From: a virus
Lineage: Duplodnaviria > Caudoviricetes
DNA length: 50,097 nt
Strand: one strand, 5' to 3'
Virus record (IMG/VR): IMGVR_UViG_3300030393_000004
Location: 1 to 50,097 of that record
This document shows, in pieces, positions 3,628 to 9,927 of this stretch. Both the position numbers and the translations under genes were made by a program. Every line of letters starts with the position of its first letter. Positions within the stretch are counted from its first letter, which is position 1. The notes beneath the pieces were generated by a model, which saw only the letters and a list, made by a program, of their open reading frames with translations, did not search any database and was not told the DNA's origin.

Positions 3628-4830
3628 TTAGTAATAAATACGAATATCAGGAAGTTCACCTTTAGCAATCGCGGTGATCACCTTCTTGCCATCCTCTTCA
3701 CTGATACCCATAGCCAGCAATACAGCCAAGTTGCGACGGTTCACCGTTGTGCGGTGCTTTTTGTTGGCTTCGCGCTCTTTCGCTAGTCGTTCAGTTTCTT
3801 TCTGCTCGTCTTCGATGGCTTTACGCTCTGCTGCTGCTGCCTCATCGGCTTGGCGTTGTGCGGCTGCTTCTGCGTCTTTTTTGGCTTGTGCCTCGCGGTC
3901 AATGCGTTGCTGTTCGGCTTTGGCTTCGTCTTCCGTCACTTTCTGAATGGTTACATCCAACTGAGCAACAACACGCGCTTTAACTTGCTCTGCTTCTTGC
4001 TGTAGTGGGTGCCAAGATCCATCAATCACGACTGCTTCAATTTTGGCTTTTTGAGTTACGTAGTAGCTAACAGGGAATACATTGCCGTTGTTATCCACCC
4101 AATCATAATTAAGCTCTGCATTGATTCGGTTCTGTGCTGCATTTAGCGCGTTAGCTGCTGCCTTGGCTTGCTCCTGTTTGCGCGCCTCTTCGGCTGCTTG
4201 GCGTGCTTTCTCTTCATCTTCACGCGCTTTGGCTTCGTCTTGCAGTCTTTTGAGCTCTGCCGCCTGCGCTTCTGTCGCTTCCACTCGCTCAAGTGTTACG
4301 CGGGCTGTGGTCAGTGCATTTTCTTGTGCGACTTTGAACTTCTTTTTGAGTTCAGGCCATACGCTGTTTAGATCGAATGATTCCGCGTATTCAATAAATC
4401 CCTTTAATTCATCAGATGTGACGCCAGGAATTGCACAAGTAACCGGTATTTGATTCAATTCTTCTAGCCAAGCGTTTTGTTCTGCTTGCGCCTCTTCCAG
4501 CGGCTTCAGGATATCCGCACGCAGCTTAGTGAACTTTTCTTTGTTCTCTTTCGCGATCGCTTCAATCAACTTCGGCTGCTTCTTGATATCGCGAAGGTAG
4601 TCACGCATCGGTGAATCGACTTCTGAGAGCTTTTTATTGATTTCAGCACCTAGCGCCTTAATTCGCTTTCTTCCCTCCTCAGAATCGATTTGAGGCACCT
4701 CTGCGTTGATTTCTGCGCTGTATGTGTCGAAGTTATTCTCAAGGAACGACTTAACTGTGTCGATACCACCAGATTTAAACTCTGTGATGATGAATGTTTC
4801 TGTAGTGCCTGTGTTATTTTCTGTTGTCAT
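3628..4830 (-). CDS. Coiled-coil protein of the recombination module
   Basis: 400 aa, A/E/K/Q-rich helical centre, ACAGGAC RBS. Confidence 0.75.
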   Translation of the reverse strand: MTTENNTGTTETFIITEFKSGGIDTVKSFLENNFDTYSAEINAEVPQIDSEEGRKRIKALGAEINKKLSEVDSPMRDYLRDIKKQPKLIEAIAKENKEKFTKLRADILKPLEEAQAEQNAWLEELNQIPVTCAIPGVTSDELKGFIEYAESFDLNSVWPELKKKFKVAQENALTTARVTLERVEATEAQAAELKRLQDEAKAREDEEKARQAAEEARKQEQAKAAANALNAAQNRINAELNYDWVDNNGNVFPVSYYVTQKAKIEAVVIDGSWHPLQQEAEQVKARVVAQLDVTIQKVTEDEAKAEQQRIDREAQAKKDAEAAAQRQADEAAAAERKAIEDEQKETERLAKEREANKKHRTTVNRRNLAVLLAMGISEEDGKKVITAIAKGELPDIRIYY

Positions 4831-4834
4831 GGTG

Positions 4835-5158
4835 TTAGTCCTGTTTGGTTGTTAGATCTTCAAGCCTTTCTAGAGCTTTATTAATGTCGGCTGTCATCCT
4901 GAAAGTTGTACGGGTTTGAGGTGCCTTGTTTTTGCATATCGGCTCTATGAAATTAAAATCCCATAACCATTCAAAAACCCATTCCGACGGATTGTAAATT
5001 ACTTTCTTGAGTTCAATTCTATTCTTGTTTCTGTGAGTGAATGTTTTTATTCCCTCGCAAGTTCTACTTCCTTCATCAAATCTGAGTAAAATATCCTTAG
5101 CCAGTTCGACTCCTTCTTTAGTGCTCATTATCTTATTTTTGATGCTCTGATTCGACAT
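4835..5158 (-). CDS. Hypothetical protein (AT-rich insert)
   Basis: ORF from ATG 5158 (or 5128); its last codons CAG GAC TAA form the RBS of the next gene. Confidence 0.6.
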   Translation of the reverse strand: MSNQSIKNKIMSTKEGVELAKDILLRFDEGSRTCEGIKTFTHRNKNRIELKKVIYNPSEWVFEWLWDFNFIEPICKNKAPQTRTTFRMTADINKALERLEDLTTKQD

Positions 5159-5579
5159 AGTTGTTCGCCTTTTCAGTATCAAGTTTGATTTGATTTGAAT
5201 TTCTAACTGCAATCCCATCGGTAACTAGTGAAGATACAACTTCGTTTGCCACGTTAGCGCCACGTTGATTGCACATTGCACGAAGGGTTTGAAAGTACTT
5301 GCGATGCTTGATTACATTGAAAATCTGAGAAGTATAAACAAGCTCATAATCTCCTTCGTCTGCACATCTCAAGTCACGGCTTAATCGAATGTAAGTCTTG
5401 ATAAATGCAACCTTCGATTTAACCAAGAACTCTCGCTCAATCTCTTCGTGGTCTCTTACCAGCAAAACGCTTCTTATGATCTCCGCAAGCTCCTTGCCGT
5501 TCTTAGGGACTTCTAGACGACCATCCTCTGCCATTGAAATCATTTCGATTTGCTTCTTGTTGATGTTATTCGTGTACAT
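5133..5579 (-). CDS. Stand-alone paralog of the primase-helicase C-terminal (putative winged-helix) domain
   Basis: AAGGAG RBS; residues 82-127 align without gaps to the primase C-terminus (see findings). Confidence 0.7.
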   Translation of the reverse strand: MYTNNINKKQIEMISMAEDGRLEVPKNGKELAEIIRSVLLVRDHEEIEREFLVKSKVAFIKTYIRLSRDLRCADEGDYELVYTSQIFNVIKHRKYFQTLRAMCNQRGANVANEVVSSLVTDGIAVRNSNQIKLDTEKANNYVESEHQK

Positions 5580-5639
5580 ATGAACTCCTTCAGGTCAGTG
5601 AGAATAGATTAGCAGTATTTATCAGGAAAAACAACCATT

Positions 5640-6000
5640 ATATTGAAAATAATTACATCGACACTTCCCCGCACGGTTTTTGTAATTTGTCGTAAAGTTA
5701 TACTTTTTTATCACCCCATAATACAAAAACTCCATCACCCCTAAGTTCTTGTTTCTTCTACTTTTTACTATAGTAAGTAAATAGATCATTTATTATTTAT
5801 AGTAAAAATAAAAGAAAGGGATAATATTTTTAGTAGGAAATAGACTCTTTTTTATAGCTAAGCGATTCTATAAGGAAATAGGGGCAGGAGCGTTAAAAAA
5901 CCACAAAAAAACATAAACTCTTTAAAAACAATGACTTGCGGTTTTTGTTGTGTTTTGTACTTTCAATATCAAAAAGTGATAAAAAGCACATTAATATCAA
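5640..6000. other. Putative replication origin
   Basis: Largest non-coding stretch, very AT-rich, nested inverted repeats (5762-5772/5798-5808; TTTTTATCAC/GTGATAAAAA), directly downstream of the primase-helicase. Confidence 0.6.
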
Positions 6001-6065
6001 TTGCTCACCTTTTTGCTGCTTGTTTATGTAAATGCTGTACGTGCGATTTATTTGTGAACTTGCAC

Positions 6066-6089
6066 AAAAAAGCCCTCAAATAGAGGGCT
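6066..6089 (-). terminator. Intrinsic terminator after primase-helicase
   Basis: GCCCTC/GAGGGC stem plus T-run on minus strand. Confidence 0.75.
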
Positions 6090-6113
6090 ATGTTATCGAT
6101 TGGAGGTGCCGAT

Positions 6114-8882
6114 TTAAGGCCACTTTCGTTTAACCTGCTTGTCGTTCTCAGGGTTGCGAATGACGCGACCCTCACCCATTAGCACAGCTAGCGCGTTCTC
6201 CATTGCGTCTTGACCATGCTCAAGCAGCTCTTTTGATATCTCCTGGTAATACTTCTGGCGCTTAAGGTAGTTCTTAAGCTCAGACTTATAACGCCATCCG
6301 TCGCGCTCATCCTTCTTGGACACAGACAGTCTCTTGATGATGGCCTCTTTAATGCCTTCAAGCTTATCTTCCACCGTGGCACCGTCTACCGCTTCGTTAA
6401 CGCGTAAGTTACTGCTTAAGTGATCGACAGAAGCAAGCGCAAGTTTAATGGCGTACATCACGTACTCCTCTTCAATAACCAACTCACCGTTAACTAGGTT
6501 ATCCATCGCCAAGATAGAAGCAACAGACATCACACGTTCAGGCAAACGCGCATAGATAGCGCCTAATCGGTTGTGATTGATGTAGTGATACTGATCGTAA
6601 TGGCATGACACGTCATACATCAGTTTGTACGCTTCTGGCGTCGCGGTCATTTTGTATTCGTGCCCGTTAAACTCAGCATCGATTTTCTTCTGGCTTGTGT
6701 CGCTAGCCATCTGAGCTATGGCACCAATGCGCGCCTTTAGTTTCTGCAGCTCGATTTCGGTTTGTCTTTCGTCGTGTGACTTCTTGCCCCACAAATCAAA
6801 GTTGCGGTGCGTTCTCTCTGAGCCGCAGTCGAAGATGAAACCACGACCCAAGAAGCCAGACTCAATCGCGTCCTCATCAATGATAGCTGCAAGTTTTTTA
6901 GGTGTAGACAAGGCGATCAGGTTTAAGCATGGATCTTTAATTCCGCTTTCCAGACCTTCCATCATGCCTTGAAGTTTGTTGATCTCAACTTGGATTTTCT
7001 CAAGCTCTGCTTCTGCCTTTTCAATCTTTGGTTTTTCAATCTCTGGGTGATAACCAAGTTTGATATCCTCTTTTGCTAGTACCTGCTTTTCAAGTCGGCT
7101 AATACGGTGCATCATTTGCCCTTGGAATTCATCAAGGTGCAAGCGTGAGATTGGCATTAGTGAAGTAGTAGCCAACTCCATTAGTGTGGCTGGAATGTTC
7201 GCGCTGTGCTTCTCTTGCTTTGAATTTGCCGCCAATAATGAATGTGCCTCATCTTTGATATAGAAACAGCGGCCATTATCGTAAACGGCAGAGCGTATAA
7301 CGTCCTTGTCAGAACGGATATCGCCATACACTTTGATACCACTTGAGGCTAGGATTTCCTTGATAACCTTCTGCGGCCACTCTTTACCACCAGCTGACAA
7401 GCCAAGAATAATGGTGATCATACTTGTCTTGGTTCCCATGAACCCACTTATACCAGCGCCAGCCATAGCTAGGCACTGCAAAGCCATTGCAGCATAAGCG
7501 CCGCCTTCCAACTCTCGGTGCGCGCCTTTCTTCATGAAGTCGACAATATCACCCGCAATTGCTGGTGGCGTATCTAGGTCGATGTGATCTAGATTGATGT
7601 CATTCGGCAAGTCTTCGACTGTCTTTGGTCGGTTTGGGTTTTTAATTGCTGGCTGTGGCGCCGGCGCTGCATTTAACCACGAACCAAACGCGGGTGGTGG
7701 TGCTGGCTCAGTTATAGGTGCTACAAAAGCCGCCTTGAACTGTTCTTCTTTCGCTTGTGGTGTTGAATCCACAACAACAGGCTTAACCACTGGCGCTTTA
7801 ATGTTCCCTAACTCTTTCTTAACCATATCGCGAAGCGTGGCTTTTAATGCATCCATACCATGCGCCTGTCGGTAGTCGTCCCAATCGCCATTTGTTTCAA
7901 TATCCATATCAGGAATAACCACACCCGCACCATAAGCTGCAGCTGCTTCGTTTGCGTAGTATTCACCCGGTCGTCGGTTGTGGTTTTCGTCTAACTTATC
8001 ATGATCACCAAAAATGATAACGCTCGAATCTGGGTGGTCGCCTTTGGCCTGTTTAACCGCTGCAGCTAGGTTGCCCGTGTTAAACGAAACATAGGTCTTC
8101 CACTTGGTTGCTTGGTTGATTGTCACGCCAGTTGCGAACCCTTCAGCAATAGCAATATTCTTTGTGGCACCGTCAATAACATGGTGAACGCCTTGCATGT
8201 CTCCACCAAACAACGGGCGCTTTTTGCCGTCTTCGGTGATCTTCTGTACGTTAACGAGTTCGCCGGACTTATAAACTGGCACCAGTAAAAGCTCACCAGG
8301 CTGCGTGATACCTTCGCGGCTCATCATTGGCTCTCCATTCACCAACCATTCACCAGAAAGCCCCTTGCTATCCATGTAGGCATGGCTTGCGCGTATCGCC
8401 GCGTCAACCATAAGCTTTGCGCCTTTCTTCGCTTGCTCGATGTTCGCTGCGCGTACTTCGTCATGGTTCACGGTATGGATGCGTTTTGGCGCAATGCTTC
8501 GGTGTAGATCGTCACCAACTAGCTCTTTTGCTGTTGCCATGGTTGTCTTGCCTAGATACATGGACAGCAGCTTTAAACCGCCGCCGCTTTGCTCTGGACA
8601 CTGCGAGCAATACCATGTGCCTAAGCCGTTTTTGTCGTCAAAGCGAAATCGGTCTTTACCACCGCAAACAGGGCAAGCGCCGTGCTTTTTATTGCTTGGC
8701 AGTTTTACGCTGTAGTTTTCAAGAACCGTTCGCCATTGACCTTGGAATTGAACCAAAGCTTTGTCGATCGGCGTGTCGCCATTGCTTTGGTATTGAAACT
8801 GGACGTTGCACCCGCAGTCTATCGGATCTGCTAGGCTTTTTCGTGTTGTGTGTCCACATGACAGTATTAGTGGGAATTTCAT
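6114..8882 (-). CDS. P4-alpha-like DNA primase-helicase
   Basis: Zn ribbon CPVCGGKDRFRFDD..GTWYCSQC; TOPRIM AEGFATG/GDHD/GDWDD; Pro-rich linker; P-loop-like GLSAGGKE and KDE; likely start ATG 8882. Confidence 0.88.
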   Translation of the reverse strand: MKFPLILSCGHTTRKSLADPIDCGCNVQFQYQSNGDTPIDKALVQFQGQWRTVLENYSVKLPSNKKHGACPVCGGKDRFRFDDKNGLGTWYCSQCPEQSGGGLKLLSMYLGKTTMATAKELVGDDLHRSIAPKRIHTVNHDEVRAANIEQAKKGAKLMVDAAIRASHAYMDSKGLSGEWLVNGEPMMSREGITQPGELLLVPVYKSGELVNVQKITEDGKKRPLFGGDMQGVHHVIDGATKNIAIAEGFATGVTINQATKWKTYVSFNTGNLAAAVKQAKGDHPDSSVIIFGDHDKLDENHNRRPGEYYANEAAAAYGAGVVIPDMDIETNGDWDDYRQAHGMDALKATLRDMVKKELGNIKAPVVKPVVVDSTPQAKEEQFKAAFVAPITEPAPPPAFGSWLNAAPAPQPAIKNPNRPKTVEDLPNDINLDHIDLDTPPAIAGDIVDFMKKGAHRELEGGAYAAMALQCLAMAGAGISGFMGTKTSMITIILGLSAGGKEWPQKVIKEILASSGIKVYGDIRSDKDVIRSAVYDNGRCFYIKDEAHSLLAANSKQEKHSANIPATLMELATTSLMPISRLHLDEFQGQMMHRISRLEKQVLAKEDIKLGYHPEIEKPKIEKAEAELEKIQVEINKLQGMMEGLESGIKDPCLNLIALSTPKKLAAIIDEDAIESGFLGRGFIFDCGSERTHRNFDLWGKKSHDERQTEIELQKLKARIGAIAQMASDTSQKKIDAEFNGHEYKMTATPEAYKLMYDVSCHYDQYHYINHNRLGAIYARLPERVMSVASILAMDNLVNGELVIEEEYVMYAIKLALASVDHLSSNLRVNEAVDGATVEDKLEGIKEAIIKRLSVSKKDERDGWRYKSELKNYLKRQKYYQEISKELLEHGQDAMENALAVLMGEGRVIRNPENDKQVKRKWP

Positions 8883-9306: not shown

Positions 9307-9927
9307 ATGAGCAATATGTTTCTAAACCCGCTATCTCAAGACGATCTAGGCTACGAAGGCTTTTTTGACGGTCAGAACAAAACTATCCCTGACAACACTG
9401 AACTTGAATTTGTAGTGACTGACGGTTTCGTTGGTATCGAAGAAGGCAAGAGCCAACAGGTGTGCATGATTAATATTGCAATCACAACGCCAGGCGAGTT
9501 CTACGGCCAGAAATACCGTTACAACGCAAAGATCTACGACATGGACGCAAACAAGCGCGACCTAGCAATGCGCAATTTGGGTGTACTTGATGCTCAATCA
9601 GGCTTCCCAATGACTAATGGCCAACTACCGCTTACTACTGAAAACGTAAAAGACCATTGGGTGCAGAAAGCAAATGCTCGCGTTAAGTTTGGTTTGCTGA
9701 TTTCTACTGAAAACATGGACGGCTCTCCAATTGTCGACCAGTTCGGTGAGCCATCATCTAACCACATTAACTTCGTTCGAGGCTTCGCTTATGACCGTGC
9801 GAGGATGGTGCAGCAAGGGCAACAGCAGCAAAGCGAGCCAGCGCAACAGGCACAGCAACAGCAGCAAGCAACACAAAATGAAGATATTGCCGCAGGTCAC
9901 GCTGGCGACGACGACATCGATTTTTAA
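9307..9927 (+). CDS. Putative ssDNA-binding protein
   Basis: Beta-rich N-terminus, Q-rich linker, acidic DDDIDF tail like SSB tails; replication context. Confidence 0.6.
   Translation: MSNMFLNPLSQDDLGYEGFFDGQNKTIPDNTELEFVVTDGFVGIEEGKSQQVCMINIAITTPGEFYGQKYRYNAKIYDMDANKRDLAMRNLGVLDAQSGFPMTNGQLPLTTENVKDHWVQKANARVKFGLLISTENMDGSPIVDQFGEPSSNHINFVRGFAYDRARMVQQGQQQQSEPAQQAQQQQQATQNEDIAAGHAGDDDIDF

Follow-up and report, generated by a model that had tools for sequence, protein, structure and literature searches.

A small phage protein related by sequence to the C-terminal domain of a primase-helicase is encoded beside a candidate replication origin in Vibrio phages

The 50,097-bp stretch of DNA analyzed here in its full length (the window) is the complete virus record IMGVR_UViG_3300030393_000004 (Duplodnaviria; Caudoviricetes), and a megablast search matched it to 15 GenBank records, all of them Vibrio phages of ~46–53 kb, with 1.223.O and 1.100.O as the best matches at ~94% identity. 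On the minus strand the region of interest encodes, in this order, a helix-turn-helix (HTH_3) protein and a primase-helicase, which are followed by a terminator, an AT-rich spacer, an open reading frame (ORF) for a protein of 148 aa that we refer to as ORF148, a small ORF that overlaps it, and the genes for a coiled-coil protein (400 aa, phrog_1376), an exonuclease, and RecT (table 1). We find that ORF148, as judged from its sequence, is a true free-standing and diverged paralogue of the C-terminal domain (the tail) of the primase-helicase, and that the ORF148 allele and the spacer are inherited jointly as a mosaic cassette. Loci of relatives are given below by L numbers and alleles of the small ORF by types, that of the window being type A.

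Table 1. Features around ORF148 in the window (strand given where one applies)
Feature	Position	Strand	Remarks
SSB (single-stranded DNA-binding protein) gene, phrog_9002	9307–9927	+	faces the HTH_3 gene across a 161-nt divergent region
HTH_3 gene, Cro/C1-type, 75 aa	8918–9145	−	directly upstream of the primase
Primase-helicase, 938 aa	6114–8930	−	Zn_Ribbon_Prim, Toprim_3, DUF3987, C-terminal tail; phrog_25777, E 0
Primase tail, residues 848–935	6126–6389	−	long helix plus winged helix; by sequence the domain from which ORF148 descends
Intrinsic terminator after the primase gene	6071–6089	−	7-bp stem, 5 GC pairs, then T run
AT-rich spacer, 534 nt, 31% GC	5580–6113		candidate origin and promoter region, inherited together with ORF148
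Three direct TATTT(C/A)CT copies	5873–5880, 5835–5842, 5776–5783	−	weak iteron candidates
Conserved core, ~85 nt	5740–5824		common to allele types A, B, and D; AT-rich inverted repeat
Promoter-like TTGTTT-17 nt-TAATCT	5606–5634	−	just upstream of ORF148; by eye
ORF148, 148 aa, phrog_31721 family	5133–5579	−	free-standing phage protein
N-terminal module, residues 1–40, two helices	5460–5579	−	family-specific, without a primase counterpart
Long helix plus winged helix, residues 42–133	5181–5456	−	homologous to the primase tail
ORF of 127 aa (107 aa in the annotation of relatives)	4835–5218	−	overlaps the 3′ end of ORF148

A sequence-only reading that preceded this analysis had proposed a free-standing copy of the primase C-terminal domain from a gap-free alignment of 46 residues, and this proposal is borne out. 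A recount of residues 82–127 of ORF148 against residues 881–926 of the primase again gives 12 identities in 46 positions, and a further likeness it had noted upstream (KVAFIKTYI/KLEGIKEAII) sits within an aligned long helix. BLASTP of ORF148 against the primase aligns the two with 13 identities in 51 positions (29.3 bits, e value 8e-5 for this single comparison). The comparison of profiles by hhalign, which had been suggested as a check, is significant: nine small-ORF sequences against nine primase tails give 96.6% and an e value of 6.1e-10 over 78 columns, and 38 against 33 sequences give 97.6% and 4e-12 over 85 columns, pairing residues 42–133 of ORF148 with residues 848–935 of the primase. 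Controls with the template reversed or with its columns shuffled (20 templates) stayed at or below 15.8, as compared with a true score of 74.7, and a separate hhalign run of the family alignment against the tail alignment gave 97.0% and an e value of 9.2e-11. When a hidden Markov model (HMM) of the family was searched against the six reading frames of the window, it found only ORF148 and the primase tail (6153–6365, e value 6.1e-11); the same model matches the primase tail in all 11 IMG/VR loci (e values 5.6e-13 to 2.5e-5) and in 12 of 12 loci of the second locus scan. Secondary matches of the model in the N-terminal half of the primase (e.g., residues 135–174 and 350–388) had inconsistent registers and were set aside as noise. 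A complex prediction for residues 836–938 of the primase together with ORF148, run without controls, scored 0.00 and is evidence neither way.

The ORF148 gene has a Shine-Dalgarno sequence (AAGGAG) 5 nt ahead of its ATG and is under purifying selection (pN 0.15 vs. pS 0.67 against L004), and its synonymous sites are saturated in comparison with L005 and L011. No Pfam model matches the protein over its cut-off; phrog_31721, a family of unknown function, matches residues 1–133 with an e value of 2.4e-15. Among 1.84 billion cluster representatives, a profile search collected 32 proteins with an e value of 0.001 or less, all of 111–222 aa and not one of them a long fused form. In the AlphaFold2 (AF2) model of ORF148, built from 10 rows, the mean confidence (pLDDT) is 85.3, with blocks from residue 51 onward at 83–96. 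Two N-terminal helices (residues 8–18 and 28–39) precede a long helix (41–72), and residues 81–133 form a winged helix with three helices (83–90, 94–105, and 110–120) and a two-stranded wing (124–127 and 130–133), after which there is a C-terminal helix. The fold check that the sequence-only reading had called for thus found a winged helix in the model; its Foldseek part, a search of the PDB with ORF148, returned nothing at an e value of 0.001 or less (best 0.052), the weak rows being mostly winged helix-turn-helix (wHTH) regulators. The top 50 VIA matches are all winged-helix domains with Z scores of 7.0–8.4, which is a middling range, and include PadR, DtxR, CRP, MarR, ORC/Cdc6, Rpa2, and cullin.

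Across 34 family rows, N7, Q10, and P25 of the N-terminal module are 94–97% conserved and the other top conserved positions (Y82, S84, Y95, F96, and R106) are structural sites of the winged helix, and the recognition helix is variable. The winged-helix part carries a net charge of +2 in ORF148 and is net positive in 35 of 38 rows. Sequence searches of the PDB with the small-ORF family and a related alignment gave no significant match, the best ESM Atlas score for ORF148 (0.87) lies under the usable range, and scans of viral contigs with three patterns gave zero matches. None of the RNA sequencing runs contains more than 0.14 of the sampled words of the stretch, and a literature search, with most subscription journals outside its reach, found no account of such a free-standing protein. 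The ORF that overlaps ORF148 accompanies type-A alleles exclusively and matches nothing in Pfam, nor any PHROG below an e value of 0.038.

The presumed parent protein starts at an ATG at 8882 in the annotation of relatives. Its DUF3987 match in the window scores 24.9 bits, under the cut-off of 27, and some relatives have PF13148 precomputed; a Pfam scan with e values up to 1 listed Zn_Ribbon_Prim, Toprim_3, and DUF3987 and no D5 family. DUF3987 proteins are helicases of superfamily 6 (SF6) and distant relatives of MCM that are often fused to DnaG or archaeo-eukaryotic (AEP) primases and have a C-terminal wHTH (Kazlauskas et al. 2016). The window primase thus combines a helicase of the SF3/SF6 kind, with SF6 taken from the literature, and a C-terminal winged helix assigned through tail homology. 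Modelled by AF2 on its own (140 aa, 10 rows), the tail reached a pLDDT of only 42.7, and its fold is therefore taken from homology and the literature. Upstream of the primase, the divergent region between the HTH_3 and SSB genes is probably the early control region.

Members of the ORF148 family adjoin this primase type downstream in Vibrio and Shewanella phages, across an AT-rich spacer of 470–810 nt. Of the 11 loci of relatives in GenBank, 10 have, downstream of the primase and on its strand, a member of the family; these include a divergent 135-aa ORF of PS15B-5 (e value 4.9e-8) and a member in Shewanella phage 1/41. In IMG/VR, 9 of 11 loci have such a downstream member, L025 has an N-terminal-only match, and on the one remaining contig the member is 4.2 kb downstream of the primase because six ORFs of at least 87 aa are inserted right after the latter; the spacer of ~540 nt has there remained with the small ORF and not with the primase. 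Four of these 11 loci repeat known contigs (L017 is L012, L018 is L011, L021 is L013, and L020 is phage 1/41), and L022 and L023 gave identical scores. Among 185,579 bacterial and archaeal species genomes the tail type was found at a single locus, on a phage-sized contig of 47 kb, so that the module is essentially phage-borne.

The ORF148 allele and the spacer are exchanged as one unit. For types A, B, and D, nucleotide identity to the window is at least 90% over the 900 nt that end the primase gene, falls to ~20–60% between the terminator and the end of the small-ORF block, and is back to at least 90% in the coiled-coil gene, where type-C phages are included. The small-ORF alleles A, B, and D are only 14–32% identical to each other, and the primase tails that accompany them are 95–100% identical.

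Several further ORFs come and go in this region. The insertion in L011 (334–3957, 3.7 kb) holds six ORFs of at least 87 aa directly after the primase stop, among them one of 220 aa with a PPC motif that by eye resembles that of cytosine methyltransferases; the position behind the primase terminator is a hot spot for insertions. Some phages have an optional ORF of ~76–78 aa immediately ahead of the small ORF (L010, 1944–2180; L014, 3556–3786), and it is also present within the spacers of L013 and L026; its copies look alike by eye and share an ending of the form KFKTK ... W(V/I)xR.

A gene in such a place could be an accessory gene of a hypervariable island, serving anti-defence, superinfection exclusion, or a similar purpose and not replication, with its variability the product of an arms race. 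The stretch from the primase terminator to the coiled-coil gene is indeed a mosaic hot spot, one contig carries the 3.7-kb insertion of six ORFs, optional small ORFs have been gained and lost, and ORF148 is missing from one isolate. However, the alleles are old and not fast-evolving (purifying selection, saturated synonymous sites, dN/dS ~0.1), and the family is without exception linked to this primase type, from which it was rebuilt on one occasion. We consider this explanation very improbable.

The rebuilding is seen in L024. In a tree of the shared region, from which 13 near-duplicate rows were dropped, 11 of 13 small ORFs form one clade and the primase tails another, with L010 standing alone at the midpoint root on a long branch. 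The L024 small ORF is instead the sister of its own primase tail (100/99) and is 57% identical (45/79, e value 3e-30) to the last 79 residues of that primase. The picture suggested by these relationships is one ancient duplication followed by one recent re-copying of the tail onto the N-terminal module of the family, and the re-copying implies that the gene slot requires a winged helix of the primase type. The N-terminal module itself appears to behave as a separable unit. Two loci have tandem genes: in L024, 4654–5052 consists of the N-terminal module and the near-copy of its own tail and ~5060–5410 is a diverged ordinary member, and in L025, 4641–5003 joins the N-terminal module (HMM positions 4–39, e value 1e-6) to an unrelated C-terminal part and the second gene (4825–5445) is a diverged ordinary family member. 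The first L025 gene's C-terminal portion was considered as a relative of the ~78-aa ORF and rejected (e value 0.65).

At the other extreme, phage 1.158.O (L009), recorded as isolated on Vibrio lentus, is without a family member, and its spacer is reduced to the ~85-nt core. ORF148 is probably dispensable for growth there, since this isolate is without the gene. In the 1.158.O record the primase and the exonuclease are each split into two coding sequences and the RecT region is missing, which is either a naturally pared-down replication and recombination module or a matter of record errors.

The core that 1.158.O has kept contains an inverted repeat of 21 nt (5762–5782 and 5788–5808) and the GC minimum of 15% (5770–5829). 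Type-C spacers are without it, and the type-C helicase half differs too; because the core is shared by types A, B, and D and absent in type C, its presence tracks the primase type and not the small-ORF allele. Its motifs occur once in the window, so that the core is not a repeated phage promoter. A search of Rfam with 4800–6400 gave nothing better than e values of 0.76 and 0.99. For iterons, we determined the top copy number of any 9-mer in a spacer, counting both strands and allowing at most one mismatch, and set it against that of 100 dinucleotide shuffles. L027 has 11 copies and L019 has 8, numbers reached by 0 of 100 shuffles in either case; L006 and L013 have 6 copies each, reached by 1 and 3 of 100 shuffles, respectively. 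In L027, seven copies of TGAGTTTT stand in one orientation upstream and five in the opposite orientation downstream. This is the layout of the Staphylococcus aureus pathogenicity islands (SaPIs), in which the origin iterons are oppositely oriented on the two sides of an AT-rich centre (PMC9371898). Iterons flanking an AT-rich centre in this manner were found in L027, L019, L006, and L013, and the window has the AT-rich centre only. Since homologous spacers in four or five relatives hold significant iteron arrays, we read the spacer as probably the origin of this phage group; for the window the evidence is positional and its own case is unproven. The earlier statement that the two genes flank a putative origin therefore stands as far as position goes, both bordering the 534-nt spacer where a helicase origin is expected, and does not extend to an origin shown in the window itself.

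We tentatively favor, at somewhat less than an even chance, a reading of ORF148 as a non-essential, allele-specific, and origin-proximal accessory factor that would bind DNA, its binding, target, partner, and effect on replication being what we infer. The winged helix would dock on DNA of the spacer inherited with it, the conserved N-terminal module would touch a partner that is itself conserved, for instance the helicase or a replication protein of the host, and the outcome would be a modulated initiation or a modulated switch of early transcription from the spacer region. A helper that tunes initiation had been one of two roles suggested by the sequence-only reading and may still be the best guess; the other, a decoy, fares worse, as discussed later.

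Several results weigh against this accessory-factor reading. The window spacer shows no repeat excess in the 9-mer test (4 copies, equalled by 77 of 100 shuffles), and neither do the type-B and type-D spacers, L020, L024, and L026 at a significant level; L022 is marginal, with its copy number reached by 11 of 100 shuffles. For TATTT(C/A)CT, a selected motif and thus outside this unbiased test, the window has four matches with at most one mismatch as compared with 0.8 expected, and its three to four TATTTCCT-like copies share one orientation. Where iterons are present, their class follows the phylogeny of the tails and not that of the small ORFs. Class III iterons (TGAGTTTT/TTGAGACA) occur in L006, L007, L013, and L027; the primase tails of L013 and L027 are sisters (99/97) and share this class, and the L027 small ORF groups with that of L022 (90/87), a locus with class II iterons. 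Class I iterons (ATTTCCT) pair with tails sharing the helix QDA(F/M)EN(A/S), the small ORFs being only 21–37% identical. The primase tail is therefore the likelier reader of the iterons, and these sequence relationships weakly favor the view that it, rather than ORF148, reads them where they are present, as in SaPI. In addition, the small ORF is no more similar to its own tail than to the tails of others in 16 of 17 phages: the own tail ranks first outright only in L024 (49% vs. at most 36%), and L004 and L020 tie with other tails. Lastly, ORF148 heads an operon that includes the exonuclease and RecT genes, and no basic residue is present in NVANEVVSSLV, the recognition helix of type A.

Because it opens the operon, ORF148 could be a plain transcription factor, that is, a winged-helix dimer that represses or activates its own promoter and the ORF107/coiled-coil/exonuclease/RecT operon, with no role at the origin and with its descent from the tail being only history. 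Its gene leads a minus-strand operon that begins behind a terminator, and the promoter-like element directly upstream of it, recognized by eye, has the same layout in the three other type-A spacers aligned; a promoter consensus scan reported no minus-strand promoter. In four of four type-B spacers (L002, L003, L008, and L012), a conserved palindrome, TTCACAAATTTCATGTGAA, precedes a TTGACA box by 4 nt; it is found ~60–95 nt ahead of the small-ORF start and is a candidate type-B operator. The best fold matches are CRP/FNR, PadR, and MarR regulators, and the allele co-varies with its flanking DNA in the manner of phage immunity regions. However, palindromes of the AT-rich type-A spacer are not distinguishable from chance, and a regulator of this kind explains neither the swap in L024 to the winged helix of its own primase nor the constant linkage to one primase type in Vibrio and Shewanella phages. 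We consider it somewhat unlikely.

The lack of a basic residue in the type-A recognition helix would fit a protein that mimics the tail toward other proteins, binding the partners of the primase tail so as to load, cap, or inhibit the helicase without sequence-specific binding to DNA. In agreement with this, the homology spans both the long helix and the winged helix, and the top conserved residues lie in the N-terminal module and at structural positions and not in the recognition helix. DUF3987 helicases are also described as MCM-like with a C-terminal wHTH, and the C-terminal winged helix of archaeal MCM, which is truncated and without wings, regulates the ATPase allosterically in a comparable way. 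ORF148, by contrast, has a two-stranded wing in the AF2 model, and a free-standing copy of the MCM domain is not described in the accessible part of that literature. The helix and winged helix are, however, highly variable among alleles that meet an identical primase, which would be unexpected of a conserved interface, and the co-inheritance with flanking noncoding DNA suggests a target in cis. A mimic acting through proteins is thus an unlikely explanation.

In the second role proposed by the sequence-only reading, ORF148 would occupy the origin sites of the tail and so damp or time initiation or exclude related phages and satellites. The protein shares a domain with the initiator and its gene adjoins the candidate origin, the recognition helix and wing in L024 are nearly those of the primase, and an unusual wing start, V/I-R-N, is common to type A and its primase tail. 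There is also a precedent in phage Mu, where the domains shared by the repressor and MuA are both winged helices. The Mu repressor and the MuA transposase share a homologous DNA-binding region and act at one operator/enhancer region (Harshey 1985; Mizuuchi 1986; PMC3820752). This pair is the nearest conceptual precedent, with the differences that its shared domain is N-terminal, that the enzyme is a transposase, and that the same sites are read by both proteins. Same-site reading is, on indirect evidence, favored in L024 and doubtful in the window phage, given the A, B, and D alleles and the own-tail test: tails that are 95–100% identical meet alleles that are 14–32% identical and have different recognition helices, and co-variation of the small ORF with its own tail is absent in 16 of 17 phages. 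A decoy for the same sites is accordingly a poor fit and quite unlikely. The suggested blocking of satellites is likewise unsupported, as no relative of the tail was found in bacterial chromosomes or satellites and the sole match is the locus on the 47-kb contig mentioned above; satellites of the PICMI type also carry DUF3987 primases, and the species-genome search found no link between them and this primase tail.

Of the described systems, the closest is SaPI Rep, which combines a primase, an SF3/SF6 helicase, and a C-terminal winged helix and has its origin downstream of rep. Rep is a self-loading helicase the winged helix of which reads iterons immediately downstream of its gene, and the accessible part of the source knows of no additional component that aids its loading (PMC9371898). 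Unlike SaPI, the group of the window keeps a free-standing paralogue of the winged helix beyond the spacer, and the window spacer is without significant iterons. The α protein of satellite phage P4 likewise has a DnaG-type primase, a helicase, and a C-terminal winged helix in one chain (PMC2777425), and a small separate gene upstream of it, cnr, controls copy number (PMC8628076). The likeness to P4 α on which the sequence-only reading had drawn does not hold for the helicase, which is of the SF3/D5 type in P4 and a DUF3987 protein without a D5 domain in the window. The origin-binding winged helix of P4 α, 1ka8, was not among the PDB sequence matches or the fold matches listed. In plasmid pRN1, ORF904 combines primase, helicase, and C-terminal winged helix, and an essential noncoding region lies just downstream of its gene; this protein is an archaeal prim-pol with an SF3 helicase, and a free-standing winged-helix paralogue is not described in the accessible text on it. 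Because the window helicase belongs to DUF3987 and not to D5, P4 α and ORF904 serve as analogies only.

Self-loading primase-helicases, whether from phages, satellites, or plasmids, are believed to find and open their origins unaided. A paralogue of the origin-recognition domain that is encoded beside a candidate origin, is exchanged as a cassette, and has once been rebuilt from the helicase suggests that initiation may have an extra layer of control in this widespread group of marine phages. A bolder and unlikely extension is that ORF148 represents a new class of trans-acting licensing factors for self-loading MCM-like primase-helicases, admitting the helicase to, or barring it from, the origin cassette with which ORF148 is inherited; the conserved N-terminal module would here be joined to a copy of the helix and winged helix by which the helicase itself reads the origin. 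If true, such a factor would be a phage counterpart of the logic of Cdt1 and geminin, and the alleles (A, B, C, D, and others), which are ancient and recombine freely, would mark out the replicon incompatibility groups of marine vibriophages in co-infections. With a protein of 148 aa, a spacer of 534 nt, and natural allele swaps and a natural deletion available in collections, these phages offer a compact test system that could reveal how a domain copied from an initiator gains a new role.

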